A stretch of DNA of 64,000 nt from Granulicella sp. (GTDB lineage Bacteria; Acidobacteriota; Terriglobia; Terriglobales; Acidobacteriaceae). Of the stretch, positions 2,043 through 59,735 are shown one piece after another. Position numbers and translations under genes: made by a program. Position 1 is the stretch's first letter. The number at the start of each line of letters is the position of its first letter. The notes under the pieces were generated by a model. That model searched no databases. It was not told the DNA's origin and was given only the letters and a program-made list of their open reading frames with translations. The stretch lies in contig JBEPUY010000005.1 in the NCBI GenBank assembly GCA_041691255.1, positions 22,114-86,113 on the forward strand, written 5' to 3'.

Positions 2043-3095
2043 TTGCAGAATCAGAATACTAGACGAGGCCGCAATCAGTATCAACGCAACGAAAGGTTAA
2101 ATCGCTTGAATCTGGAAAACCAGGACTCCCCGAGCAATCAGCCCACCGATCTGGTGAGTGTCATCATCCCAGCATATAATGCGGTGCCATATATCAAAGA
2201 GACTCTCGAATCCGTCTTCAGCCAGACATATCGATCTTTTCAGGTCATAGTTGTCAATGACGGCTCTCCTGATACACCAAGTCTGGAAGAGTTGTTGCTG
2301 CCTTATCGCGAACGCATTATTTATATTAAGCAGGAAAATCGTGGGCTAAGCGGGGCTCGCAACACCGGGCTTCGTGCGGCGAATGGCAGCATGGTGGCGC
2401 TCCTTGATGCAGATGACATCTGGACGCCGGATTACCTGGAAGAACAGACGAAGTATCTCCGAGAACATCCTGAATTCGACTTAGTCTACTGCAACGCGCG
2501 CTTTTTCGGGCAATCGATCTACGATGGCAGAGAATATATGGACGTCTGCCCCTCCGATGGCGAAGCAACGTCAGTCGCCATTATCTCCCGGCGCTGCCAC
2601 GTGTTCGTGTCAGTCACCGCACGTGCAGAGGTGCTTAAGAGCTTCGGATTCGACGAATCGCTTCGATCCTGTGAAGATTTCGATTGCTGGCTTCGCCTCA
2701 CAGCCGCCGGACACAAGATCGGCTACCAACGCAAAATCCTTGTCCATTATAGAAAGCACGCTGCCAGCCTCTCCGCAAATCCAACGTGGATGGCCGACTA
2801 CAATATTCGAGTATTAACGAATGCGCTCGCGCTGTGGCCCCAAAACTCTGAAGAGACAAAACTGCTGCTTCAGGCTCGGGCAATCAAAACCGCGGAGTTA
2901 GATACGATTCGGGGAAAGATCGCGCTAAGAGATCAGGATATCCCCGCTGCTATCGCTCATCTCCAGGCCGCAAACGAATACTATAAGAGCACGAAGGTTT
3001 CTGCGACCATCTCCATGCTCAGACTGATGCCCAGACTGGTATTGGCAACTTTCAGACTGCGTGGACTACTCTTTAGAGCACACCGCGAGAACTGA
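2043..3095 (+). CDS. Glycosyltransferase family 2
   Basis: 'VSVIIPAYNAVPYIKETLESVFSQTYRSFQVIVVNDGSPD' and 'LDADD' are GT-A signatures. The start is uncertain: TTG at 2043 or TTG at 2106, which follows a GAAAGG. Confidence 0.85.
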   Translation: MQNQNTRRGRNQYQRNERLNRLNLENQDSPSNQPTDLVSVIIPAYNAVPYIKETLESVFSQTYRSFQVIVVNDGSPDTPSLEELLLPYRERIIYIKQENRGLSGARNTGLRAANGSMVALLDADDIWTPDYLEEQTKYLREHPEFDLVYCNARFFGQSIYDGREYMDVCPSDGEATSVAIISRRCHVFVSVTARAEVLKSFGFDESLRSCEDFDCWLRLTAAGHKIGYQRKILVHYRKHAASLSANPTWMADYNIRVLTNALALWPQNSEETKLLLQARAIKTAELDTIRGKIALRDQDIPAAIAHLQAANEYYKSTKVSATISMLRLMPRLVLATFRLRGLLFRAHREN

Positions 3096-3123
3096 AATGA
3101 CTTTCAACCAAAAAGGAATCTAA

Positions 3124-3714
3124 TTGGCTTCTAAGCTTTGGCAAACCTTGCAAGCTGACCTTTATCGTTACCGCGGTAAGGCTGATTTGCGCTCATTTGT
3201 TTCTGCCTATCTTCGTGATCCAGGCTTTCGCTTCACCTACTATCTAAGAAAAACGGCCTTCTATAGTAGAAAAAAGAGATCCATCGGAATCTTCGGTTAC
3301 ATCTATAACCGCATCCTGCTGCATCATTACACTTTCAAGTACGGTTTTGACATTTCTCCCACTACAAGCATCGGCCCAGGTCTATACCTTGGCCACTTTG
3401 GAGGAATTGTGATCAGTCCCTATGCAGTCATAGGTGCCAACGTTAACATCACAAAGGGAGCGACAATCGGTGCAACCAGTCGAGGATCACGCCTGGGAGC
3501 ACCTACGCTTGAGGATCGCGTCTGGGTTGGCGCCAATGCGACCATCGTTGGAAAGATTACGATTGGCTGCGAAGCTCTCATTGCACCAGGTGCTTATGTC
3601 AACTTTGACGTACCCAGCAAAGCAGTGATTCTTGGAAATCCAGGAAAAATTGTTGCTACCTCCGGCTCCCAAGGATATGTCAACAATACGATGAATTTTA
3701 CTTCAACAGTCTGA
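3124..3714 (+). CDS. Hexapeptide-repeat O-acetyltransferase (serine acetyltransferase/WcaB-like)
   Basis: The left-handed beta-helix repeats 'IGPGLYLGHFGGIVISPYAVIGANVNITKGATIG...VWVGANATIVGKITIG' identify the family. The TTG start is preceded by AAGGA at 3113-3117. Confidence 0.8.
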   Translation: MASKLWQTLQADLYRYRGKADLRSFVSAYLRDPGFRFTYYLRKTAFYSRKKRSIGIFGYIYNRILLHHYTFKYGFDISPTTSIGPGLYLGHFGGIVISPYAVIGANVNITKGATIGATSRGSRLGAPTLEDRVWVGANATIVGKITIGCEALIAPGAYVNFDVPSKAVILGNPGKIVATSGSQGYVNNTMNFTSTV

Positions 3715-3797
3715 CCTGCCAAACTGCCGGTCATCGGAAAGGCAAAGACCGAATCGCAGGCAGGAGGCCGGACATCAGGATGAACTAAAATTTCCGT

Positions 3798-5459
3798 TTA
3801 TAATTGATTTTTTGAAATCTTCGCCGCGAAATTACCGTCGATCACTTCAAAATTATTTGTTCTCGAATAGGTATGCGTACCTAGATTATTCGGGACCCAC
3901 TCTGGCCCGATTCGTCCTATTGGCCTTTCGAGATACTCCATTTCATTCAAAAGCAATACTTCTAAAAAACACAAGGCATACCCGTAAGCTTTTGCACAAT
4001 CCTGCGAGGGTCGGATAAGCTTGCCATCTTCATAAAATAAAGGACCGGCAGGCCGAGATCTTCGTACATCCGATACTACTGGATTATTACGATGGGGCGT
4101 CCATGGCCCAAAGAGTGAGTCGGCATAGAATAATCCAAGTTCGTCGCAATTAGAGTATCTGCCGTTCGACAAACCTACGAACATCCAGAATTTCCCATCG
4201 ACTTCATGTATTGTGGCGTCGACTGCGAAGATATCTTTCAACAGCACAGCAGCAAGTGACCAACGTGCTGGAAATTCATCAGCGCGATAAAGCTCCACGG
4301 TACGATTCTCTTTTGTCTCAGGAATCATGTACATCTGCCCATCCTGCTCAAATAAGAACGGATAGGAAAGATGATAGGGCCGACGAAGGACCTCTACTGG
4401 ATCAGTAAGTGAGCCATCCGAGTTTACTTCCGAACAACAAATGAGAGCTCGCCCCTCGCTATATCGATAATCTTCAAAAAATAAATAATTCTTGTCATTC
4501 TTTTTGACCAGGAAAGGGTCAGCATAGAAGCGATCCTGCGGTGGCTGAACGATATGGTATTCCGAAGGATTGTCGAATTTGAGACTAGGCAATCGCTTTC
4601 TGGTCGCTAAAAACCACTGGGTATATCCACCATGCAATCTCGATGATATTTTAGCCCTGATTGCTCGTTGCAGTAGACGACCAAGGAATACCATCATTTG
4701 CAGCGTATTAGGTGTTTTATAAATTCTTCTCTTGTATGTGTTTGTTTCGTTGTAGGTTGGCAGAGATTGGATGTAACCCCAACCCTTAGAATTTAGATCG
4801 CGCAATCTGCGCATTGCGTATTCTGCTGTTTTCCAATAGATGGGATTACGACTTCGATAAAGCGATGTGCGATCCGTCTTAGAGTGGCCTCTATAGATGA
4901 CATGTCCGCCATCGAGGGAGTTGGTTAATATCTGGAGGATAGTGCCAGACACAGGATTTTGCTCATATATCTCCCAAAAAAGGGGAGGGCCGCCTCGATA
5001 CTCCAGATTGTCATCATGGTGAAATGACCATACCCCATATTTCGCCGCATCCAGAATTTCGCCACGAATGATGCGAAAGCCAAATCTAAATATCACATCC
5101 AGATTGGCTGCTTTAATCTGAGCAAGGTTTTCCTCGCTGAAACGATCCGTAAAACCTTTGCGAATAGGCTCGACCGTGATCTTGGACACCTCTCCGAGGA
5201 ACATGGATAGATCACGAGGAGCCTTTGCATCTGCGGCACCCTTATATTTCTCGTAATCCCACTGCTCATAGCGATGGTAAAGAGTTAGGTTCCAATGATT
5301 CTTCAGCCGCTTTCGAAGTGATGGCTTTTGCTTTGGTGCCGGCGTGTTCAGGATGACCAATGCTACCTGGGCAAAATCCGAGTCCTGAATGTCTTCGATA
5401 ACTTTGGCGACCCAAGCGCTGGTCGTCAGCGAATCCAGCATTATACCGATGCGCAACAT
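3798..5459 (-). CDS. Fusion protein: N-terminal formyltransferase-like domain plus C-terminal beta-propeller-like domain (glucosamine inositolphosphorylceramide transferase N-domain-like)
   Basis: The N-terminal half contains 'DVIFRFGFRIIRGEIL..GVWSFHHDDNLEYRGGPPLFWEIYEQNPVSGTILQIL', which resembles the Fmt/PurN core. The C-terminal half, 'FYADPFLVKKNDKNYLFFEDYRY...MIPE...WMFV', resembles GH43-like/GINT1_N family proteins. That family call is from memory, not from a search. Confidence 0.6.
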   Translation of the reverse strand: MLRIGIMLDSLTTSAWVAKVIEDIQDSDFAQVALVILNTPAPKQKPSLRKRLKNHWNLTLYHRYEQWDYEKYKGAADAKAPRDLSMFLGEVSKITVEPIRKGFTDRFSEENLAQIKAANLDVIFRFGFRIIRGEILDAAKYGVWSFHHDDNLEYRGGPPLFWEIYEQNPVSGTILQILTNSLDGGHVIYRGHSKTDRTSLYRSRNPIYWKTAEYAMRRLRDLNSKGWGYIQSLPTYNETNTYKRRIYKTPNTLQMMVFLGRLLQRAIRAKISSRLHGGYTQWFLATRKRLPSLKFDNPSEYHIVQPPQDRFYADPFLVKKNDKNYLFFEDYRYSEGRALICCSEVNSDGSLTDPVEVLRRPYHLSYPFLFEQDGQMYMIPETKENRTVELYRADEFPARWSLAAVLLKDIFAVDATIHEVDGKFWMFVGLSNGRYSNCDELGLFYADSLFGPWTPHRNNPVVSDVRRSRPAGPLFYEDGKLIRPSQDCAKAYGYALCFLEVLLLNEMEYLERPIGRIGPEWVPNNLGTHTYSRTNNFEVIDGNFAAKISKNQL

Positions 5460-5579
5460 GACCTCTCATCAATTACCCCGACCAGCGGGCCACACCAAAG
5501 ATTATTTGAGCAAGTATAGCAGCGAGCCTTAGACGGGAGCTTCTCGCAACCTCACGATAGCGCTATTTCAGTTGGGGTC

Positions 5580-28831: not shown

Positions 28832-30784
28832 ATGTGCGGAATTGTTGGTTATATCGGTCCCCAGCCCGTCGTCCCCGTCATCATTGAAGGCCTGCGCCGT
28901 CTCGAATATCGCGGCTACGACTCCGCCGGCATCGCCGTAGCGGGCAATTCCAGCGGTCTCGAACTTCGCCGCGCTCCAGGCAAGCTGCGCAACCTCGAAG
29001 CCGTCATCGCCGAGCATCCCCTCCACGGCACCTTCGGCATCGGCCACACTCGCTGGGCCACCCACGGCCGCCCGACTGAAGAGAACGCGCACCCCCACCG
29101 CGACTGCACCGGAACCCTCGTCGTCGTCCACAACGGCATCGTCGAGAACTATCTCGCTCTAAAAAAAGAGCTTACCGCCTCCGGCCACAAGTTCGTCACC
29201 GAGACCGACACCGAGATCATCGCCCACCTGATCGAAGAAGAGATCAAGCAGGCCCCCGGCATCGTCCTCGAAGAGGCCGTCCGCCGCACCGTCCACCGCC
29301 TCACCGGAGCCTTCGCCATCGGCGTCCTCTCCGCCAACGAGCCCAACAAGCTCGTCGCCGCCCGCATGGGCCCGCCCGCCGTCATCGGCATCGGCGAAGG
29401 CGAATACTTCCTCGCCTCCGACGTCCCCGGCATCCTCCACCACACCCGCAACATCCACTTCCTGCAGGATGGAGAGATCGCCGTCCTCACCCCCACCGGC
29501 GTCACCCTCACCGACTTCGAAGCCAAGCCTCTGCCCTTAAAAGTCCAGCGCATCGCCTGGGATCCCATCCAGGCCGAAAAGGCTGGCTACAAGCACTTCA
29601 TGCTCAAAGAAATCAACGAGCAGCCCCGCGCCATCCGCGACACCACCCTCGGCCGCGTCTCGCTCGACACCGGCAAGGTCTTCCTCAGCGAGATGCAGAT
29701 CACCGACGAGGACTTCCGCACCGCCAGCCAGATCACCATCGCCGCCTGCGGGACGTCATGGCATGCGGGGCTCGCCGGAAAATTCATGATCGAGCGCCTC
29801 GCCCGCCTCCCCGTCGATGTCGACTACGCCAGCGAGTATCGCTACCGCGATCCCATCGCCGACCCGCACGCCATCGGCCTGCTCATCACCCAGTCCGGCG
29901 AAACCGCCGACACCATCGCCGCCCAGCGCGAGTTGATCTCGAAGGGCAGCAAAACCCTCGCCATCTGCAACGTCGTCGGAGCAGCGGTCACCCGCGAGGC
30001 ACAGGGAACCATCACCACCAACGCAGGCCCCGAGATCGGCGTCGCCTCCACCAAGGCCTTCACCGCCCAGCTCACCGCGCTCTTTATCCTCGCGCTGCGC
30101 CTCGCCCAGGTCCGCGGCACCATCACCGATGCCGAATCCCTCCACCTGGTCACCGAGCTCTCTCGAATCCCCGGCAAGCTCGACCACATGCTCAACCTCA
30201 CCGGAGCCACCGGCACCTCCGAGGGCGTCGCCGCTCCCAAGCCGGTTCCCGTTCCCGACCGCCGCACCCAGTCTCGCCTGCCTCTCACCCAGCAGTGCGA
30301 AGAGCTGGCCAAGATCTTCCACACCGCCAATGACTTCCTCTTCCTCGGCCGCGGCATCCACTACCCCATCGCCCTCGAAGGCGCGCTCAAGCTCAAGGAG
30401 ATCTCCTACATCCACGCCGAAGGCTACCCTGCGGGCGAGATGAAGCACGGCCCGAACGCTCTCATTGACGAGTCGCTCCCGGTCGTCTGCATCGCGACCA
30501 AAGACTCCAACGATCCTTCTAGCGTCCTGAAGTACGAAAAGACCCTGAGCAACATTCAGGAGGTCACCGCCCGCAGCGGCCGCGTCATCGCCATCGCCAC
30601 CGAAGGCGACACCGAGATCGGCCAGTTGGTCGAGCACACCATCTACATCCCCCAGGCCCCCGAACTCCTCCTCCCCCTGCTAGAAGTAGTCCCCCTCCAA
30701 CTCCTCGCCTACCACATCGCCGTAAGAAGAGGCTGCGACGTAGACCAACCCAGAAACTTGGCTAAATCTGTAACCGTCGAGTAG
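28832..30784 (+). CDS. glmS: Glutamine--fructose-6-phosphate aminotransferase (isomerizing)
   Basis: The N-terminus 'MCGIVGYIG' (Ntn Cys), two SIS domains, and the C-terminus '[15 protein letters not shown]' identify glmS. It is 650 aa because of an internal low-complexity insertion. Confidence 0.95.
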
Positions 30785-30787
30785 CTT

Positions 30788-30829
30788 ATATCCCACCCTT
30801 CGCAGAGGCGCGAAGGATGGGGCACCCGG
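30788..30829 (+). repeat. REP-type palindromic element, copy 1
   Basis: The sequence is TATCCCACCCTTCGCagaggcGCGAAGGATGGGGCACCCGG. The same imperfect palindrome occurs at 31490, 32079 and 59568. Confidence 0.85.
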
Positions 30830-30913
30830 CAAAGAGTGTAACGGTGGAATAGCCAGCTTTATCAATCATTTATAGTGCAGTAACTTAAAGTTGTAACTAG
30901 AATTGCGTCTATT

Positions 30914-31438
30914 GTGTTAATTGATGAGGTTGGAATGTGGTTTCGAGAGTTAGCCACCTTTGTTATAGCGATATATGGTGCCATAGTGTCAACCATCGCG
31001 CTTAGGTCAAATATAAAAAAAGAACGTCAAAATGTCGGGAAACTGACATTATGTGCCAGCATTGCGTGTGTTGAACCCGCTATTGAGGGCGCACGAACGA
31101 CTACCTCATTCATCTTGGCTCAAAGCTCTATACCGTTGCTTCCTGAAGGAGATCGCCAGTTCGTCATCAGATGCACCAATATTGGCACAAGACCATTAAC
31201 TTTAGTCAATTGGGCACTCATTTCTCGGTCTCAAGACGGGGGTGTCTTCCGTGCTGCGACCACATTTGTCCATCGACTGGAAGAGAGTGAATCAGCATCA
31301 TTCATAATAAGCGACTTCAATAAGCTGAGAAGCAAGGTTACGGGACTGTGCGTGGAAGATACACACGGCAGATACTGGAATTTACCTGACACGGAGTTCA
31401 TAAAAATGAAAGAGGTAATGCTAGAGTACCGACTTTGA
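30914..31438 (+). CDS. Hypothetical membrane-anchored protein (low-GC orphan)
   Basis: 174 aa. It has one N-terminal TM helix (FVIAIYGAIVSTIAL) and a beta-rich C-terminal part. The surrounding DNA is markedly AT-rich. The start is uncertain (GTG 30914 or ATG 30935). Confidence 0.45.
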   Translation: MLIDEVGMWFRELATFVIAIYGAIVSTIALRSNIKKERQNVGKLTLCASIACVEPAIEGARTTTSFILAQSSIPLLPEGDRQFVIRCTNIGTRPLTLVNWALISRSQDGGVFRAATTFVHRLEESESASFIISDFNKLRSKVTGLCVEDTHGRYWNLPDTEFIKMKEVMLEYRL

Positions 31439-31449
31439 AGGCGGGTGGC

Positions 31450-31466
31450 CGGGTGCCCCATCCTAT
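31450..31466 (-). repeat. Half REP (truncated copy)
   Basis: GGGTGCCCCATCCTATA matches the outer arm of the REP only. Confidence 0.6.
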
Positions 31467-31489
31467 AACTCCAACCAACCACAAAACCT

Positions 31490-31530
31490 CGGGTGCCCCA
31501 TCCTTCGCGCTTTTGCGAAGGGTGGGATGT
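31490..31530 (-). repeat. REP-type palindromic element, copy 2 (inverted orientation)
   Basis: The sequence is CGGGTGCCCCATCCTTCGCGCTTTTGCGAAGGGTGGGATGT. It lies 18 bp upstream of the RAYT start. Confidence 0.85.
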
Positions 31531-31547
31531 AAAATTCTCCCACCCCC

Positions 31548-32057
31548 ATGCCCACCGGCCTCAGACGCTACCAAGAGACACAGAACTTCCACTTCATCAC
31601 CTTCAGTTGTTACCGCCGCCAACCCTTCCTCAAAACGGACACCGCAAAAGACACCCTCCAACACATCCTCGAACAGACCCGTCAACGACAGAGACTCTGC
31701 ATTGCGGCCTACGTCCTTATGCCCGAGCACATCCATCTCCTCACCGACGAACCCGACCTCGGAACCCTCGCAACCTTTCTCCAGATCTTCAAACAACTCA
31801 CCTCCCGCCAACTAAAATCCCCCGACCAGAAACAGTTCTGGCAACGCCGCTACTACGACTTCAACGTCCACTCTGAAGAAAAGCGCGTCGAAAAAGTCCG
31901 TTACATCCACCGCAACCCGGTCACTCGCGGCCTCGTCCTCCACCCCGAAGACTATCGCTGGAGTAGCTTCAACCACTACGCCACCGGCGAACCCGGTCCC
32001 GTCGAGATAGAGTCAGAATGGACCGCCCGCCTCCGCGAACGTCAGCTTCAGACATAG
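31548..32057 (+). CDS. REP-associated tyrosine transposase (RAYT; IS200/IS605-like Y1 HUH transposase)
   Basis: 169 aa. It has 'YVLMPEHIHLL' (HUH), 'FWQRRYYDF', and 'YIHRNPVTRGLV..PEDYRWSS'. It is flanked by inverted REPs. Confidence 0.9.
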   Translation: MPTGLRRYQETQNFHFITFSCYRRQPFLKTDTAKDTLQHILEQTRQRQRLCIAAYVLMPEHIHLLTDEPDLGTLATFLQIFKQLTSRQLKSPDQKQFWQRRYYDFNVHSEEKRVEKVRYIHRNPVTRGLVLHPEDYRWSSFNHYATGEPGPVEIESEWTARLRERQLQT

Positions 32058-32078
32058 AGATAGACGAACCAGCGGCTT

Positions 32079-32120
32079 ACATCCCACCCTTCGCAAAAGC
32101 GCGAAGGGATGGGGCACCCG
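32079..32120 (+). repeat. REP-type palindromic element, copy 3
   Basis: The sequence is ACATCCCACCCTTCGCAAAAGCGCGAAGGGATGGGGCACCCG. It lies 21 bp after the RAYT stop, inverted relative to copy 2. Confidence 0.85.
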
Positions 32121-32155
32121 AACTTTCACGATGACCTCACCGGCTGCGTAACAAC

Positions 32156-32248
32156 CAAGTGGCCACAAGTCCCCAACCTTGACAAACCCCCGCCCCAGAA
32201 GCACCCCCTCTACACGGACACCCCCACCCAGGTCATACTTCAAGTCCA
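32156..32248 (+). repeat. Left part of a ~145-bp repeat (R145) interrupted by the IS1-family element
   Basis: It aligns by eye with 36725..36812 (CCAACCTTGACAAA...CCAGAAGCACC...TCTACAC.GACACCC...CCCAGGTCATACTTCAAGTCCA). Confidence 0.75.
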
Positions 32249-33279
32249 GGTAGTGTCCTAATTTGGATTTCGGCTTTATGTTGCGCTGTTATGTTCGGGG
32301 TGGGGACACTTTTTCCAGCCTTGCATACTGGAAACGGGGGAAATAGGCAGATAATCGAGCCCGTCGCGCTTGATGATATCCCCAAATTTATAAATTCTGA
32401 AAATGTATTGAAAACTAAGCGAATGGGATCGCTGAAAATGTCCTCGTAGAGAATTACGCCCCACAAATGGGCGTAAAGATTTCTTCCTCCGGCTATAACT
32501 TTGTCTTTCCACATTTGTTCCGAAATTGTAATGTCCAAGGGCACTTTAATGGCATCTCCGCTTGGACGAATAATTTCGATTACGGCAGTACTAAATTCTG
32601 TGCGTTCCGGTTCGGCATCGGAAGCCGTTATTTCGCATTCATGTCGAATCAAAACATTAACCGCGTCCGTTTGACCGAAATTTCCGACCGCAATTTCAAT
32701 ATCTTGCCATGGGAAATCAATCGAAATTTCAGTCAGTGGCAACGGGTTGAATGTAATTCGTGCGCGCTCTTTGGTTTTCATCATCTTGATCTGGTCGTTC
32801 GCAGCTCTCGCGCTGTCTTTGGCAGCCGCAACGGAGTCTTTAAGAATGCCAGTTTGCTCGCCCATGTGTCCGGCTTGGGTTTTCACCAAATCGGATTGTT
32901 GCCTCATGGCATTGAGCGTGTTGTGCATGATGATGCGCTGCAAGCGCATTTCTTTGGCTTGCGCGTGGATGCGAAGAAGAGTAACGACGGCAACTACGAT
33001 GCCAGCGATTCCGACAAGAACCAACGCGAAAGTTTCCCAAAACGCAGCTTTGTCGTATCTATCCTTGGCTGGGGTAGAAATGACCCTTACATCGGTATAA
33101 CTGTCCTTCTTGGCTTCGGGCTGGAGGCTTGGGCTGTTGGTTTGCTGTGGCGCAACAAGCGAAGTTTGGGCGGTTGGCTTATTGCTATCGGTGCTCTGCT
33201 TTGTTTTATACGTTTGGGCGTGAGTCTGCATCGAGAAGACCGTGATCGACAGCAGGAATATCACCAAACATTTCAGCAT
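32233..33279 (-). CDS. Hypothetical type-I membrane protein (signal peptide, TM, coiled coil, beta-rich C-domain); IS passenger
   Basis: 348 aa. It has a signal peptide MLKCLVIFLLSITVFSMQTHA, a TM helix FALVLVGIAGIVVAVVTLL and a coiled-coil stretch. The coding region is low in GC. The ORF runs through IRL and its stop lies 16 bp outside the element, so the true C-terminus is uncertain. Confidence 0.45.
   Translation of the reverse strand: MLKCLVIFLLSITVFSMQTHAQTYKTKQSTDSNKPTAQTSLVAPQQTNSPSLQPEAKKDSYTDVRVISTPAKDRYDKAAFWETFALVLVGIAGIVVAVVTLLRIHAQAKEMRLQRIIMHNTLNAMRQQSDLVKTQAGHMGEQTGILKDSVAAAKDSARAANDQIKMMKTKERARITFNPLPLTEISIDFPWQDIEIAVGNFGQTDAVNVLIRHECEITASDAEPERTEFSTAVIEIIRPSGDAIKVPLDITISEQMWKDKVIAGGRNLYAHLWGVILYEDIFSDPIRLVFNTFSEFINLGISSSATGSIICLFPPFPVCKAGKSVPTPNITAQHKAEIQIRTLPGLEV
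32241..32248. repeat. Target-site duplication, left (CAAGTCCA)
   Basis: It is identical to 35514..35521. The uninterrupted sequence CTTCAAGTCCAGACTTAAC is present in the intact repeat copy near 36802-36820. Confidence 0.75.
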
Positions 33280-33326
33280 GATGGAGAAAATGTATCACAG
33301 AAATATATAGACATCCCTGATATCCG

Positions 33327-34136
33327 GTGGGACGATTGGGCATGGGTTCAGCGCTCGAATTTTTATGGACGGCCTTCCGTGACTACTGGAAGGTATGGGT
33401 TACAGGGACTGGCACAGTCGGATTCTTCCTTTTTGGTCTCGGACTTTTCGAGAGACACAGGGGGAAGTCTTTGAACTGGAAAATATATACGGCAATACTA
33501 TTCTGTACTTTTTGGTTTTTAGGGACTTTCTCAGCTTGGCACGATTCCCAGAAAAATCTACGACTAGTAATTCAGCAGCGCGAGCATGACACCAGTTCAC
33601 TGGGGAGTTGTACATCTAATTTGCGTTTGCAGACGGCACTGAAAGAATCTTGGCAGGAACGCTTTGCCGATCAGCAAAAGACAATTAATGCTTTGCAAGG
33701 ACCGGAGTTACAACAGCAGGCAACCATTAATAGTTGTGTTGTGTCTCTAGGTAAAACAAATCCATTTATTAGTACAAAAACAAGTGTTGTCGCGTTTGAT
33801 GTGGCTTCATCAATAAAACCCTCCGCATTCAAATTGGGTTCTCCCACGGTGACTTATTTTATAGCCATTGTTATCTCAACCAACAGACGGACCAACTTTT
33901 CAGGAAGGCTGAATTGCTCTTATCCTTTCAAGATCGATAGTTCTCCTCAAGTAAGCGCGAGGGAATCGAATTCCGGAATGTATGGAACCGGCTCATTCAC
34001 TGTTGTATCCGACAAAGAATACGTCTTAGCAAATGCAGATACTGGCGGCCTATGGGACGCAGCAGATCCTGTTTATCTCACAGGCGAAAGCAATACAAAA
34101 GTCATCGGCCCTTGCACTTTTAATCTCTCTCAATAA
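33327..34136 (+). CDS. Hypothetical 2-TM membrane protein with coiled coil and beta-rich C-domain; IS passenger
   Basis: 269 aa. The TM helices are VGFFLFGLGLF and AILFCTFWFLGTF. The DNA is low in GC. It is divergent from the 348-aa gene. An alternative ATG is at 33342. Confidence 0.45.
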   Translation: MGRLGMGSALEFLWTAFRDYWKVWVTGTGTVGFFLFGLGLFERHRGKSLNWKIYTAILFCTFWFLGTFSAWHDSQKNLRLVIQQREHDTSSLGSCTSNLRLQTALKESWQERFADQQKTINALQGPELQQQATINSCVVSLGKTNPFISTKTSVVAFDVASSIKPSAFKLGSPTVTYFIAIVISTNRRTNFSGRLNCSYPFKIDSSPQVSARESNSGMYGTGSFTVVSDKEYVLANADTGGLWDAADPVYLTGESNTKVIGPCTFNLSQ

Positions 34137-34194
34137 AAGCGTAAAGTTTGACAGTATGGGATAAATGTAATACAGTAATTGCAGTGAGGTTGTT

Positions 34195-35016
34195 ATGGCC
34201 AACGTACTCAGCATCGACAAGAAAATCGCGGTAATTGGAGCATTAGCAGAGGGTTCCAGTATTCGTTCCATCGAGCGGATTACCGGAGTCCACCGCGATA
34301 CGATCATGCGCCTTGGTGTAAAGGTCGGCGATGGTTGCACCGCTTTGATGGATGCGAGGATGCGGAACTTGCCCTGCAACCGTTTGGAGATGGATGAGAT
34401 TTGGGGCTTTGTCGGCAAGAAGGAACGCAACGTCAAAATGGGCGACGGAACGGAAGTCGGAAGCGTCTGGACGTGGTGCGCTATCGATGCAGAAACAAAG
34501 CTGGTTCCTTCATTTATGGTCGGAGCGCGGGACAAAGCCACTGCACACGCCTTTGTAGCTGATGTAGCAAGCCGTATGGCAAACCGAGTACAAATCTCCA
34601 CCGATGGCTTCCACGCTTATGCAGCCGCGATGCAGAAGTCTTTCGGAAATGATGTGGATTATGGGCAGATCGTTAAGGTCTATGGAACCTATGCGTTTGG
34701 GGAGCGCCGCTACAGTACATCGGGAGTTCTGTCTGCTGAGAAGAAGGTATTCACTGGCCGTCCTGATGTTGACCTGATCTCTACCAGCTATATCGAACGG
34801 TTGAACGCTACCACCCGCACCCATATGCGTCGCCTCACTCGCCTTACGCTGGCCTTTAGCAAAAAGCGTGAGAATTTCGTTGCAGCGGTCGGACTTCACT
34901 TTGCCTATTACAACTTCGTTAAACGCCACAACACACTTCGCTGCACTCCTGCTATGGCAGCGGGTGTGACTGGTTCTATGTGGAGCGTTGGAGATTTAGT
35001 AGAGGCGGCAGAATGA
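34195..35016 (+). CDS. IS1-family DDE transposase (single-ORF type with N-terminal HTH)
   Basis: 'LEMDEIWGFVGKK' corresponds to IS1 InsB 'DEMWGYVG'. 'ISTDGFHAYAAA' corresponds to 'TDGWPLY'. 'YIERLNATTRTHMRRLTRLTLAFSKK' corresponds to '[25 protein letters not shown]'. Confidence 0.85.
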   Translation: MANVLSIDKKIAVIGALAEGSSIRSIERITGVHRDTIMRLGVKVGDGCTALMDARMRNLPCNRLEMDEIWGFVGKKERNVKMGDGTEVGSVWTWCAIDAETKLVPSFMVGARDKATAHAFVADVASRMANRVQISTDGFHAYAAAMQKSFGNDVDYGQIVKVYGTYAFGERRYSTSGVLSAEKKVFTGRPDVDLISTSYIERLNATTRTHMRRLTRLTLAFSKKRENFVAAVGLHFAYYNFVKRHNTLRCTPAMAAGVTGSMWSVGDLVEAAE

Positions 35017-35324
35017 ATAACATAGAAGAACTTAGGGACGTGATTCGCAAGCTACACGGCGTGGACGCTACGCACCGTGAAAGCGTTCCTGTTCACGAGA
35101 TATTTCAGGGCAAAACGATATGGCAAGGCTTTGTAGAGGTTTTCGACCTAAAAGGTCATCCCGAAACCAATACAGCCTATGCCTGGTCGCACGATACGGA
35201 CGACCCCGACAATCCGCGTCGGCACGTTACCGTGCTCCACATTGATCCAGCCCTATCCCCACTCAACGCCGTTAGAACGGCCATCATGCAGGAGTTCTAC
35301 AGCAATGCCAGCCCAGAAGCCTAA
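35013..35324 (+). CDS. Hypothetical protein, translationally coupled to the transposase
   Basis: An ATGA overlap joins it to the transposase stop (35013-35016). It is 103 aa, 'MNNIEELRDVIRKLHG...'. I recognised no motif. Confidence 0.5.
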   Translation: MNNIEELRDVIRKLHGVDATHRESVPVHEIFQGKTIWQGFVEVFDLKGHPETNTAYAWSHDTDDPDNPRRHVTVLHIDPALSPLNAVRTAIMQEFYSNASPEA

Positions 35325-35490
35325 GAAGGTCGGTCGTCCCAAACTTGCCAAAGGGGAAGCAAAAGGCAAGATCGTGCCTATCCGGTTCAATGCGGAAGAC
35401 ATTAAGAAAGTTACTGCGGCAGCGAAGGCGAATAAACAGACAGTGTCCGAATGGGTTAGGAGCACTTTGTATGCCAGACTCGAAGCCTAA
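35305..35490 (+). CDS. Small ribbon-helix-helix-like (CopG/antitoxin-like) DNA-binding protein
   Basis: 61 aa. It has a basic N-terminus, then 'KIVPIRFNAEDIKKVTAAAKANKQTVSEWVRSTLYARL' (beta-strand then two helices). It overlaps the preceding ORF by 20 nt. Its stop lies at the inner edge of IRR. Confidence 0.5.
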   Translation: MPAQKPKKVGRPKLAKGEAKGKIVPIRFNAEDIKKVTAAAKANKQTVSEWVRSTLYARLEA

Positions 35491-35513
35491 AGAATTCAAA
35501 TTAGGACACTACC

Positions 35514-35521
35514 CAAGTCCA
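35514..35521. repeat. Target-site duplication, right (CAAGTCCA)
   Basis: See the left copy. An 8-9 bp duplication is what IS1-family elements generate. Confidence 0.75.
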
Positions 35522-35583
35522 GACTTAACTCCCCTGTTTCGAAGACTTTGGGTACTTAAGTACGGGGGAGGGGGTACCTTCTC
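35514..35583 (+). repeat. Right part of the interrupted R145 repeat
   Basis: CAAGTCCAGACTTAACTCCCCTGTTTCGAAGACTTTGGGTACTTAAGTACGGGGGAGGGGGTACC aligns with 36806..36868. Confidence 0.75.
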
Positions 35584-35706
35584 TCCGAGGCAGCCAGACC
35601 ACCCTAAACTCAACATTCCGGAGGCCAACCAGAGTTCCTTAATTTGCCGATCCGAAACAAGTTATGCCATAAGGGCCGCCCCTTATCGAATTCCCAAAAG
35701 AGGAAA

Positions 35707-36711
35707 ATGAATATGCGCCTCCGAATTGGTCTCCTTGTCGTAGCCGCCTTCGCAACCTCCTGCAACCTGGCTCTTGCCTCCCCCATTTTGCCGGGTCAAG
35801 TCACTCAGATCGTCGGCTTCGGCGACAGCCTCTCCGATGCTGGCAACGCCTCCATCGCTACCTTCGGAGCCGCGCCCGGCCCGGGTTACGCAACCCGAAG
35901 CGTCCCCGGCGTTCCCTTCCCCGTGGGATATTTCACCAACCCGGCGACAGCAACCGGCCCCGCCGGCCTCTGGATCGACCAGTTCGCCGCTAAGGTTGGA
36001 GTTGCCGATCCCTCGCCCGCGCTTGCGCCTCTCGGAGGGTCGAACTACGCAGTGGGCAGCGCTATGACCGGCAGCGCAAATCCTGCCGACATGCAGAATC
36101 AGGTGAACCTCTTTCTGGCTACCCATCCGGGCAGCGCTTCCTCCTCCGCCCTGTACACCTTTTGGGGTGGCGCTGAGGACATCTTAGGAGCCCAGAATCC
36201 AATCACCGCAGCCGACAATATCGCGGCACAGATCACACAGGTGGCCGCCGATGGCGGACACAATTTTCTCTGGCTGAACCAGCCAGGTCTCGGCGGGATT
36301 CCCGCACTTAGCGGTGATCCCGTCGCAACCGCCGAGGCAAACTTCGCCTCCATGGAATTCAATCAGGAATGGGCATTGCAGGTGAGCAATCTGGACAGCC
36401 TGGGGATTAACGTGATCGGCGTGGACATCGACACGCTGTATAACAACATTCTGGCCAACCCGGGAGCTTACGGGTTCAACGATGTGGCCGATGCTTGCAA
36501 CGCGACCATTGGATGCAATCCCGATACGTTTCTTTACTGGGATAGTTTGCACCCGACAACCTCCGCCGATTCGCTGGTCGCCGACCTCGCCTTTCAGGAC
36601 GCCTTCGGCACCACCGTCACACCAGAACCTCCAACTGTCACGCTCTTCGCTCTGGGCGGGGCAGGCCTGCTCCTGCTCTGGAGATCAAAGCGGCAGGCGG
36701 CCCGCGCATAA
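35707..36711 (+). CDS. SGNH/GDSL-family lipase/esterase with C-terminal PEP-CTERM anchor
   Basis: It has a signal peptide, block I 'VGFGDSLSDAGN', block V 'YWDSLHPT', and the C-terminus 'TPEPPTVTLFALGGAGLLLLWRSKRQAARA'. The ATG at 35707 follows AGAGGAAA. Confidence 0.85.
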   Translation: MNMRLRIGLLVVAAFATSCNLALASPILPGQVTQIVGFGDSLSDAGNASIATFGAAPGPGYATRSVPGVPFPVGYFTNPATATGPAGLWIDQFAAKVGVADPSPALAPLGGSNYAVGSAMTGSANPADMQNQVNLFLATHPGSASSSALYTFWGGAEDILGAQNPITAADNIAAQITQVAADGGHNFLWLNQPGLGGIPALSGDPVATAEANFASMEFNQEWALQVSNLDSLGINVIGVDIDTLYNNILANPGAYGFNDVADACNATIGCNPDTFLYWDSLHPTTSADSLVADLAFQDAFGTTVTPEPPTVTLFALGGAGLLLLWRSKRQAARA

Positions 36712-36724
36712 GCCCAACAATCCG

Positions 36725-36868
36725 AGTGGCGGGTGCCCAACCTTGACAAAACCCAGGGCCAGAAGCACCTCATCTACACAGACACCCTCTCCCAGGTCAT
36801 ACTTCAAGTCCAGACTTAACCCCAATGTTTCGAAGACTTTGGATACTTAAGTACAGGGGAGGGGTACC
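36725..36868 (+). repeat. Intact copy of the ~145-bp R145 repeat
   Basis: It is contiguous with both halves found at 32156-32248 and 35514-35583. It contains the palindrome GTACTTAAGTAC. Confidence 0.75.
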
Positions 36869-36955
36869 TCACGTCCGGGGCTTACCTGCCTGCCAGCCCC
36901 TTCTCCGATTTCACGAATCTCCTGAGAGGTAAATCGAAATGATAGGCTTTTCTCC

Positions 36956-37135
36956 ATGAGCGGCCCAACCCTTCAGCAACGACTCGACATCCTTCTCGAC
37001 CATCTCGCCGAGGCCGAACGCGAATACGCTGCCGGAATTCCCTATCCGGACCCGACTGCCGGCAACTGGCCCGGAAAGATCGCCGGAATCAAGCAGCACA
37101 TCGCGACCCTGCGCGAGATCATCGCCAACGAATAA
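36956..37135 (+). CDS. Small hypothetical protein (59 aa; below the ORF-track cutoff)
   Basis: I translated it by hand: MSGPTLQQRLDILLDHLAEAEREYAAGIPYPDPTAGNWPGKIAGIKQHIATLREIIANE*. Third-position G/C bias is strong, as in neighbouring genes. It competes with the minus-strand ORF 36911..37099. Confidence 0.4.
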   Translation: MSGPTLQQRLDILLDHLAEAEREYAAGIPYPDPTAGNWPGKIAGIKQHIATLREIIANE

Positions 37136-37247
37136 CGCTCCGGCCGCCAGACAGCCTCAAGCGGCCTTTTGGCCCTCATCGCCATCAAACCAGCATATCG
37201 ACTCGCTGGCCGCTAGCCATGCAATCGAATGAGGAGCCTCAAACCGC

Positions 37248-37739
37248 ATGGCCAAAGACTGGATCGCAGCTCTCGCACAGGACATTCAGCAGAAAAACCA
37301 CGAAGCCGCAGAAGATTACGGCAGGCAGCAGCACAAGGCAGGCATCACCGCCAACCTCGGCATGCCCTTTTTTACCACCCTCGTCTCCTGTCTCGAACAG
37401 GACGTAGCCGAAATCAGGCGCGAACTGCAAGGCGACCTCACCTCTGCTGACACAACCGTCCAGATCGTTAACATCAACGCCGTCAAGCTCACCCGCGACC
37501 GCTTCCCTTGGTTCGACGCGCACCTTATCCATCACGACGACAACATCGTTCTCGAGTACGCCAAAGACCGCGGCATCGCCGGAGATCCCAATCTCGACCG
37601 TAAGACGGTCCACTTCACCTTCGAGGTCGCCGCAGACGACACCTTCTCCGTGCAGCAGTCCTTCAGCGAGACGCCGCGCAGCTTCCAATCTCCCGAAGAG
37701 CTGTCACGTTACATCGTCGAACTACTCTTCCAGCATTAG
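37248..37739 (+). CDS. Hypothetical protein
   Basis: 163 aa. Codon bias resembles the host genes. I recognised no motif. Confidence 0.5.
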   Translation: MAKDWIAALAQDIQQKNHEAAEDYGRQQHKAGITANLGMPFFTTLVSCLEQDVAEIRRELQGDLTSADTTVQIVNINAVKLTRDRFPWFDAHLIHHDDNIVLEYAKDRGIAGDPNLDRKTVHFTFEVAADDTFSVQQSFSETPRSFQSPEELSRYIVELLFQH

Positions 37740-59567: not shown

Positions 59568-59607
59568 CTCCCACCCTTCGCAAAAGCGCGAAGGATGGGG
59601 CACCCGG
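59568..59607 (+). repeat. REP-type palindromic element, copy 4
   Basis: The sequence is CTCCCACCCTTCGCAAAAGCGCGAAGGATGGGGCACCCGG. It lies in the intergenic region after the permease gene. Confidence 0.85.
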
Positions 59608-59735
59608 GCTTTTGCGCAGAGGCGATGAAGCAGAGCTAGTTTTAACGATTTACTTATGGCTTTATTGCGTTTCTTGGTTACGACCAGCTAAATTGACAAG
59701 GTAGATCGATTCCCTTTGAAAGCTGGTGCGAAACT

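Follow-up and report, generated by a model that had tools for sequence, protein, structure and literature searches.

The 64,000-nucleotide stretch of Granulicella sp. DNA analysed here (contig JBEPUY010000005.1 of assembly GCA_041691255.1; hereafter the window) carries at 32249-35513 a 3265-bp insertion sequence (IS), which we hold with good confidence to be an intact-ended, passenger-carrying IS (tIS) and a member of a very large, apparently uncharacterised IS1-family clade in Acidobacteriota. The locus comprises a memA-like membrane-protein gene on the minus strand (33279 to 32233, an open reading frame (ORF) of 348 amino acids) and, on the plus strand, the memB cassette (33318-34166), the transposase gene tnp (34195-35016) and two small genes, orf104 (35013-35324) and rhh61 (35305-35490). 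What may surprise specialists most is that, throughout the family, the strand opposite the memA-like gene is stop-free in a frame that is phased with a start codon in the right end of the element.

The ends of the element are sharply defined. The left inverted repeat (IR), on the plus strand at 32249-32269, and the right IR, on the minus strand at 35493-35513, share a perfect 17-bp core (32249-32265 and 35497-35513) and remain similar over 21 nt at 95% identity; both tips read GGTAGTG, in keeping with the GGnnnTG end consensus of the IS1 family. The core 17-mer, GGTAGTGTCCTAATTTG, occurs exactly twice in the window, once at each end and in opposite orientations, whereas shuffled sequences gave a mean of 0.06 matches and reached two matches in 0 of 100 shuffles. 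Outside the IRs lie identical, strandless copies of the target-site duplication (TSD) CAAGTCCA, at 32241-32248 and 35514-35521, and a ninth base, G, can be assigned to either the TSD or the IR. The insertion splits one of the two window copies of a 137-nt dispersed repeat, into 32169-32248 and 35514-35579, and leaves the other intact on the plus strand at 36733-36869. When the element and one TSD copy are removed, the joined flanks align with this uninterrupted paralogue at 83.6% over 146 nt, spanning the junction; the paralogue holds the target CAAGTCCA at 36805-36812, and CTTCAAGTCCAGACTTAAC runs unbroken through 36802-36820. The GC content is 0.41-0.53 within the element and 0.56-0.66 outside it, and a Logan contig (L001) that is 100% identical to 32272-35566 represents the same locus in an independent assembly. 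An initial annotation of this DNA had read perfect 17-bp terminal IRs, ends of the GGnnnTG type, a target duplication of 8-9 bp and an empty site within the window itself, all of which are borne out here, with the duplication taken as 8 bp.

The tnp gene occupies 25% of the element and encodes, in a single ORF of 273 amino acids, a DDE transposase with an N-terminal helix-turn-helix and an IS1-type catalytic domain; there is no insA upstream of it and no zinc-finger region. The protein passes the Pfam model PF03400 (DDE_Tnp_IS1) with 41.6 bits against a cut-off of 24.1, as expected from the earlier description of an IS1-type DDE enzyme filling about a quarter of the element, and its best NCBIfam model is IS1 at 71.9 bits, compared with 35 for IS6 and 22 for IS1595. 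Residues D67, D137 and E201, together with an ERxN..T.R block, are invariant across 75 transposases that include the one in the window, and the latter retains every acidic residue that is invariant in the family. More than 7800 homologues were found, often labelled 'IS1 family transposase' in their source databases, and homologues from alphaproteobacterial plasmids, at 45-47% identity, bear the same RefSeq name.

To place the element in its family, we scanned species-representative genomes, which yielded 80 loci at 73-87% identity, nearly all of them from Acidobacteriaceae or Terriglobales metagenome-assembled genomes. Both IRs could be located in 72 of these loci, which we refer to as bounded relatives; counts over 73 elements add the window copy, and counts over 81 loci add L001, that is, the window locus. 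A 17-bp IR with 0-2 mismatches bounds all 72 relatives, GGTAGTG-type ends are conserved in about 70, and an 8-bp TSD is present in 67 (68 of 73 with the window), five of these extending to 9 bp by chance. The relatives are 2191-4603 bp long, with one 6.3-kb case that appears nested, and the distance from their left IR to the downstream tnp is never below 492 nt and is usually 820-2000 nt. This also settles that 32249, as first annotated, is a real left end, since the same 17-bp IR stands at 820-2000 bp from tnp in about 70 relatives. The closest relative, L083, has a transposase of 95% identity, measures 2262 bp, carries the standard four genes and has its IR 943 bp upstream of tnp. The claim that this is a genuine IS1-family element, longer than classical IS1, is supported by the ends, the TSD and the Pfam match, and the extra length is due to the extra genes carried. 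The search for cargo-less copies of about 1.2 kb, proposed with the initial annotation, found none among the 72 relatives, the shortest being the one of 2191 bp.

Target sites vary across the family apart from a weak TSD consensus, CAAnnTCG. In the three closest relatives (L002, L004 and L083, the last in opposite orientation), homologous repeats have been hit at the identical position, which suggests a lineage-specific insertion hot spot in the 137-nt repeat. A hairpin at the target repeat is not significant (z = -0.56), and no known RNA families were found in 31000-37500. One relative, L058, presents an additional arrangement: a 1463-bp element (1426-2888) that has the family IRs but lacks tnp is followed head-to-tail by a full element (2897-5528), to which it shows no similarity, and the same 8-bp TSD, CAAGCTGG, occurs three times. 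The shorter element may be a non-autonomous derivative, or one target site may have been used repeatedly.

The left arm of the element is the domain of the memA-like family, which fills it, in divergent orientation, in about 60 of the 72 relatives. The minus-strand membrane gene, first annotated as a passenger, is therefore a regular left-arm gene of the family. Its products share a layout of an MLK signal-peptide-like or transmembrane N-terminus, a low-complexity linker, a transmembrane helix, a long helix and an Ig-like β-sandwich, and the β-domain carries the motifs ERA..NxGxxPA..GxxxYxDxF..TRF. Pairs of memA-like proteins are mostly less than 35% identical, though their transposases are 72-94% identical. 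An AlphaFold2 (AF2) model of the window protein reaches a predicted local-distance difference test (pLDDT) score of 75-89 in the β-domain and falls below 50 for residues 302-348; Foldseek returned only generic Ig-like matches (ApaG, the Kir cytoplasmic domain; E about 0.01), a Pfam search of 65 memA-like proteins found nothing recurrent, and PADLOC and PHROGs gave no match. That these are real proteins is supported by the shared motifs, by the predicted fold and by substitutions that peak at their own third codon positions, and we conclude that memA-like genes encode a fast-evolving membrane protein family with a β-sandwich domain.

In the family, the memA-like stop is usually a TAG inside the left IR, or lies up to about 100 nt short of the IR. 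The window gene (homologues P0122-P0134) departs from this pattern: its ORF passes through the left IR and terminates 16 nt beyond the element, the consequence of a frameshift in its 3' part that leaves the family C-terminus (..GWKKCPHPEHNSAT*), ending at 32276, in another frame. An indel near 32417-32446 would account for the shift. Elsewhere, a memA-like gene joined to an IS end (..KPN* followed by GACACTACC) occurs without a transposase at 2133-3113 of L091, where ArdC-like, PIN and IS21-type genes are the neighbours of this relic.

Between the two divergent genes lies a conserved regulatory region, with a sigma-70-type promoter that drives the operon of tnp, orf104 and rhh61. In the window, tnp is preceded by a -35 box TTGACA (34148-34153), a 17-nt spacer, a -10 box TACAGT (34171-34176) and a GAGG (34186-34189), the whole spanning 34148-34189 on the plus strand, and TTGAC(A/T)-17 nt-TACAnT stands directly upstream of tnp in 71 of the 73 elements. 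The -10 box ends either about 17-22 nt before the ATG, with a Shine-Dalgarno motif between them, or only 6-9 nt before it; the latter class comprises 16 elements (L014, L017, L034, L037, L047, L048, L051, L054, L061, L065, L067, L073, L074, L076, L080 and L081), in which the spacing would imply a leaderless transposase mRNA. The leaders of the remaining elements measure 17-28 nt, and most have a Shine-Dalgarno motif. A tnp promoter placed in the left IR and requiring a translated leader is unsupported, given the conserved promoter directly upstream of the gene.

The tnp -35 box is bracketed by a palindrome, TGTA-NNNN-CAAAA ... TTNTG-NNNN-TACA, whose right arm holds the tnp -10 box. On the opposite strand, the left arm supplies the -10 box of the divergent gene, a TACAAT some 9 nt away from the ATG of memA-like genes. 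Both arms could be recognised in 54 of the 73 elements, and the 4-nt cores co-vary in several lineages (CCCC/GGGG, CTCC/GGAG, CAAC/GTTG and ATAC/GTAT); the palindrome looks like an operator governing both divergent promoters. In the window its left half, with the arm TGTATCACAGAA and the memA promoter region, is found at 33281-33317 (no strand assigned) and is 89% identical to 918-953 of L083, and the two arms stand about 850 bp apart, split by the memB cassette.

The memB gene itself (coding sequence 33342-34136) encodes 264 amino acids with N-terminal hydrophobic segments; it has 142 representative homologues and no Pfam family. The cassette is absent from the 72 bounded relatives and from L083, against which it aligns as an insert of about 33318-34166 within the divergent promoter region, from the left operator arm to the tnp -35 box. 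In L082 and L088-L090, homologues of memB stand alone, without IS ends in their vicinity, and a repeat related to the 137-nt target flanks the one in L082. In this lineage alone, the promoter region has probably captured memB from a host. Lying between the IRs and absent from relatives, memB is what makes the element a tIS. It is also the sole lineage-specific passenger, where four passenger ORFs had been annotated: memA belongs to a family gene, and orf104 and rhh61, as set out below, belong to the core.

Other members of the family carry cargo in three slots. In 12 relatives it separates the memA-like gene from tnp, in 33 elements it separates tnp from orf104, and in 12 elements it follows rhh61; this cargo includes DUF2513, 8xMP, HNH, RelA_SpoT, DUF2299, DUF4177 and zinc-ribbon proteins. 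Two families recur in the tnp/orf104 slot, one of about 130 amino acids with the motifs ..ELNWVEKRAACS..GRC.L.L..ELEQWQFRKKALE.LFFG and one of about 100 amino acids that is zinc-ribbon-like (CxxC...CPxCG); neither has a clear Pfam assignment. Loci with genes in this slot are, for example, L003, L005, L039, L042, L052, L071, L072 and L077, as well as L004, L006, L037, L038 and L058. At about 8000-11461 of L042 there is a 6.3-kb version of the element of L044, with an extra segment before the right IR that contains a RelA/SpoT-domain gene, possibly a small-alarmone-synthetase toxin.

The state of the window copy is accordingly mixed. With its IRs and TSD perfect, it was probably inserted recently; whether it can still move is uncertain, because the left arm is damaged. 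The original view of the element as probably still mobile therefore holds for the ends, the TSD and the transposase, which are intact, and is weakened by the frameshift in memA and the split of the operator and promoter region. A stronger alternative, which we regard as somewhat unlikely, is that the copy is an immobile relic, inserted recently and then crippled by the memA frameshift and the memB insertion. The out-of-frame memA C-terminus and the low pLDDT of residues 302-348 fit this alternative, as do the stops that interrupt the plus frame of the left arm at 32447-32449 and 33472-33474, the distance of about 850 bp between the left operator arm and the -35 box, and the single copy known; against it stand the perfect IRs, the identical TSD copies, the intact tnp promoter with its Shine-Dalgarno motif, and tnp, orf104 and rhh61, which are all intact with every invariant residue in place.

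Downstream of tnp, orf104 (103 amino acids, plus strand) begins in an ATGA overlap with the tnp stop, and rhh61 (61 amino acids, plus strand), which encodes a ribbon-helix-helix (RHH) DNA-binding protein, overlaps orf104 by 20 nt; because of these overlaps, tnp, orf104 and rhh61 form one translationally coupled operon. By tblastn, orf104 adjoins tnp in 81 of 81 loci and an RHH gene is present in 79 of 81, and it is this retention beside tnp that makes both genes core components of the element instead of passengers. The orf104 family numbers 3093 homologues with invariant His, Glu, Asp, Tyr and Trp residues, and its AF2 model (pLDDT 82.6) shows an α-β4-α fold. We found no match to it in Pfam, NCBIfam, PADLOC or PHROGs, and none in the PDB by sequence or by fold (best Foldseek E 0.43). 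The RHH protein has an AT-hook-like N-terminal GRPK tail, and all its matches are sub-threshold: DUF6290 (24.3 bits, cut-off 27), RelB_antitoxin (23.7 bits, cut-off 50), NikA-like proteins and a PHROG 'transcriptional repressor'. Searches of defence-system and phage protein families with the accessory genes gave nothing beyond weak repressor or transposase matches. The start of rhh61 recurs near the end of the element, where a 20-nt direct repeat of 85% identity (35305-35324, ATGCCAGCCCAGAAGCCTAA; 35471-35490, ATGCCAGACTCGAAGCCTAA) gives it sequence in common with the start of an outward-reading right-end ORF.

We consider that the RHH protein, perhaps together with orf104, probably binds the palindromic operator and controls both promoters. 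The same pair could instead constitute a type II toxin-antitoxin-like addiction module that stabilises the element and has no part in transposition as regulator or cofactor. Such a module would agree with the small size and overlap of the two genes, with the weak similarity of the downstream RHH partner to RelB antitoxin and DUF6290, with the invariant His, Glu, Asp and Tyr of orf104, which could serve an enzyme, and with the toxin-like cargo of other family members (RelA_SpoT and HNH domains). We nevertheless judge it unlikely, as searches of Pfam, NCBIfam, PADLOC and PHROGs linked orf104 to no toxin family, the PDB offered no fold for it and every RHH match falls below its curated cut-off, whereas the coupling to tnp and the nearby palindromic operator suit autoregulation equally well.

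The left arm has a further property, on the strand opposite memA. In the window the plus frame antisense to memA is stop-free over 32249-33474 in two segments, 32249-32449 (in frame 0 of the left IR) and 32467-33474, and the split between them is caused by the same indel that frameshifts memA. Across the family, long ORFs on both strands of the left arm, with the antisense frame codon-aligned, are found in 61 of 64 elements. The codons that would create antisense stops in this alignment (TTA, CTA and TCA) number only 55 among 20,564 memA-like codons, against 270 expected from the Leu and Ser content of these proteins and the codon usage of tnp, and 57 of 71 memA-like genes have none at all, against 2.2 expected. 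The depletion is specific, because other A-ending codons are enriched about twofold in the same genes. As a control, 319 host ORFs of at least 250 amino acids in the flanks carry 1.1% such codons (2.8% at comparable GC), and 6% of them have none. Neither codon bias nor GC content therefore explains why the antisense frame is open, given the enrichment of A-ending codons and the 2.8% in host ORFs of similar GC. Antisense stops do occur in memA-like genes apart from complete elements, with four in L091 (a solo IS end without tnp) and two in L092 (outside any IS), and none are present in four further intact elements (L083-L085 and L093).

The minus strand is the primary coding strand of the arm: substitutions per site at its codon positions 1, 2 and 3 are 0.46, 0.36 and 0.59, and the third-position peak, the motifs and the β-domain model all lie on it, which rules out the plus strand in that role. 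The plus translations, for their part, look non-protein-like.

The open plus frame is moreover phased with both ends of the element. In 50 of 70 elements no stop interrupts it from nucleotides 1-3 of the element, across the left IR, as far as the start codon of the memA-like gene, and in 29 of these 50 it coincides with the tnp frame. Relative to the left IR its phase is compatible in 39 of 52 cases against 22.3 expected (p = 2.7e-6), and in elements using frame 2 the IR takes the variant form GGTGGTG and so lacks the in-frame TAG (p = 9e-4). We simulated joined ends by placing the right end of each element, a spacer and the left end of the same element in succession. With spacers of 2, 5 or 8 bp, all 50 frames continue across the right IR without a stop, and in 47 the right end supplies an ATG, GTG or TTG in frame; a spacer of 11 bp leaves 48 open and 46 with a start, and at all other lengths only 2-5 have a start. 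The commonest right-end start is the GTG in GGAG..TAAGCCT-GTG-GATTTCAAATTAGGACACTACC, 25 nt from the tip, and a Shine-Dalgarno-like motif (GGAG, GAGG or AGGA) precedes 34 of the 47 starts. In four of the five frame-2 elements the right-end start is shifted to the matching phase. The composite ORF continues in frame into tnp in 19 of 47 cases, yielding 580-690 amino acids, and most of the other 28 end 10-60 nt before the tnp ATG. A natural junction of this kind exists in L058, where right IR, 8 bp and left IR follow one another and a 326-codon ORF crosses the junction from an ATG in the right end of the upstream element.

The window copy has a right-end start of the class 43 nt from the tip, on the plus strand at 35459-35513: a GGAG (35459-35462) precedes an ATG at 35471, which reads MPDSKPKEFKLGHYP through the right IR and, across an 8-bp spacer, is in phase with frame 0 of the left IR. 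The indel brings a stop at 32447-32449 into its composite frame, which is broken again further on by the memB cassette. In the window, the outward ORF from this ATG runs to 35710 and overlaps the start of the next gene (35644-36711).

From these patterns we put forward, tentatively, that the family encodes a long ORF that would come into being only once an 8-bp spacer links the two ends, for example in a circle or a tandem dimer. It would begin at an ATG or GTG with a Shine-Dalgarno motif, a short way inward of the right IR, and run for about 300 codons antisense to the memA-like gene. The conserved 17-bp IRs are recognised by the DDE transposase, and 8 bp of target are duplicated on insertion. 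In the proposed cycle, transcripts from the tnp promoter or from the junction would run round the circle or tandem dimer; ribosomes would pass from the right-end start through both IRs and the left arm to reach tnp, and the product would feed translation into the transposase or fuse with it. A junction is the best fit to the data because the phase coupling holds for spacers of 2 modulo 3, including the TSD length of 8 bp. The spacer of IS1 circles is presumably about 6-9 bp. According to a preprint (10.1101/2023.06.07.543989, citing Turlan & Chandler 1995 and Sekine et al. 1997), transposition of IS1 involves circular intermediates and presumably follows a copy-out-paste-in route.

Several points weigh against the interpretation offered here. 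The NCBIfam IS1 score of 71.9 bits is below the equivalog cut-off of 100, for which reason we place the clade as a distant branch of the IS1 family. The relatives share ancestry, which inflates some of the family counts. The window transposase has an exact match in a single contig only, and the window holds one copy of the element. The functions of orf104, rhh61 and the memA-like proteins found no database support in the searches that we ran. Basal tnp expression can do without translation of the left arm, since the gene has a conserved promoter of its own. Finally, four-fold sites of memA-like genes are nearly saturated, with a divergence of 0.49 compared with 0.57 in tnp; conventional dual coding with a conserved plus-strand protein is therefore unsupported, and selection acts on the openness of the plus frame and not on its sequence.

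The same openness might instead serve the integrated copy, with ribosomes from a host gene or from read-in transcripts preventing Rho-dependent polarity and the outward right-end start resuming translation of the interrupted host gene in its original phase. Because the TSD is 8 bp, this alternative predicts the same phase as the joined ends, and the arithmetic of the two is identical; the plus strand of the window element is almost wholly covered by ORFs, and no stop closes the left-arm frame before it passes out of the element at the left IR. Host insertions nevertheless make it improbable. Among 62 insertions there was no enrichment for in-phase insertion into host ORFs: 22 lie in an open frame of at least 150 codons, and only 3 of these 22 combine compatible orientation and phase, where chance would give 3.7. 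The majority of insertions are intergenic, and so is that in the window, which lies in the dispersed repeat; the plus frame seldom reaches far into the flank. We accordingly keep the junction reading as the preferred, if tentative, account of the frame. As for the element itself, it is scarcely credible that the match at 32249 is fortuitous or part of a composite and that the real IS is a short unit starting near 34.1 kb, since the 17-mer is found nowhere else in the window, the empty-site paralogue fits exactly and the 72 bounded relatives, without exception, carry the distant left IR (at least 492 nt, usually 820-2000, upstream of tnp), with a matching TSD in 67 of them, which identifies the window element as a bona fide member of the IS1-family clade.

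Three other features lie in the surroundings of the element. Directly to its left, at 31548-32057 on the plus strand, lies an IS200-like Y1 transposase gene (Pfam Y1_Tnp, 50 bits), which looks like a REP-associated tyrosine transposase because four copies of a repeat of about 45 nt, 91-98% identical, lie around it and elsewhere in the window (30784-30828, 31489-31532 on the minus strand, about 32077-32126, and 59569-59612). A low-GC island at 30650-31500 (0.44-0.50 against 0.62-0.67 upstream) contains a 174-amino-acid ORF at 30914-31438. Directly to the right of the IS, the plus-strand gene at 35644-36711 encodes a GDSL-type lipase or acylhydrolase with a PEP-CTERM sorting signal.

The clade described here has thousands of members in soil Acidobacteriota, as judged by the more than 7800 transposase homologues, and a fixed accessory set that is unstudied: an α/β protein without a known fold relative, an RHH protein and a hypervariable membrane protein whose gene reaches the tip of the element. 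Through its three cargo slots the clade spreads DUF2513, 8xMP, HNH and RelA/SpoT-domain genes as well as others whose function is unknown. If the junction frame is confirmed, it would be a new means for a transposon to sense its own excised state and a translation-level counterpart of junction promoters, and it would reveal family-wide selection for antisense translatability without a conserved protein sequence, in a clean natural study system.

Classical IS1 measures 768 bp, expresses insA and insB' joined by a -1 frameshift, and has its promoter in the left IR. Like classical IS1 (IS1A of E. coli), the window clade has a PF03400 DDE domain, GGnnnTG ends, a TSD of 8-9 bp and coding sequence that reaches the IRs; unlike it, the clade has a single 273-amino-acid ORF with its own promoter directly upstream, two conserved downstream accessory genes and a divergent one, and a length of 2.2-4.6 kb. 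Membership of the clade in the ISMhu11 subgroup of the IS1 family, whose range of 900 to 4600 bp agrees with the 2191-4603 bp found for the clade, is unconfirmed, and a literature search found no paper on ISMhu11 or on the architecture of the window element. The concept of the tIS denotes an IS that carries passenger genes (PMC7986276). As long IS1-family members with extra genes, the elements of the clade resemble such tISs, but most of their extra genes are fixed parts of the element and not occasional passengers.

In IS911 and other IS3-family elements, as well as in IS30, IS21, IS256 and IS110/IS492, a signal that boosts the transposase is assembled only at the abutted ends of a circle or tandem dimer. 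The putative signal of the window clade would likewise be formed at joined ends. It differs in kind: junction promoters contribute a -35 box from one end and a -10 box from the other, and the pattern here suggests an assembled reading frame, for which the right end supplies a start codon with its Shine-Dalgarno motif and which then meets no stop in either IR or in about 900 nt of left arm, where it lies antisense to another gene.

Two further comparisons concern the target and the antisense frame. REP-targeting insertion sequences such as ISPpu9 (PMC12288879) invite comparison because the window element, like its three closest relatives, occupies one particular position within a dispersed repeat, and a REP-associated tyrosine transposase gene lies next to it in the window; unlike the IS110-type enzyme of ISPpu9, however, the enzyme of the window is a DDE transposase, and most members of the family have varied sites. 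Antisense overlapping genes are described in E. coli, among them ano, a 186-bp ORF, and laoB (PMC5960689, PMC5810103). The left-arm frame resembles these in being an ORF embedded antisense within an annotated gene, but where ano and laoB are short and confined to single loci, this frame spans about 300 codons and is kept free of stops across most of a mobile-element family while its amino-acid sequence is unconserved.

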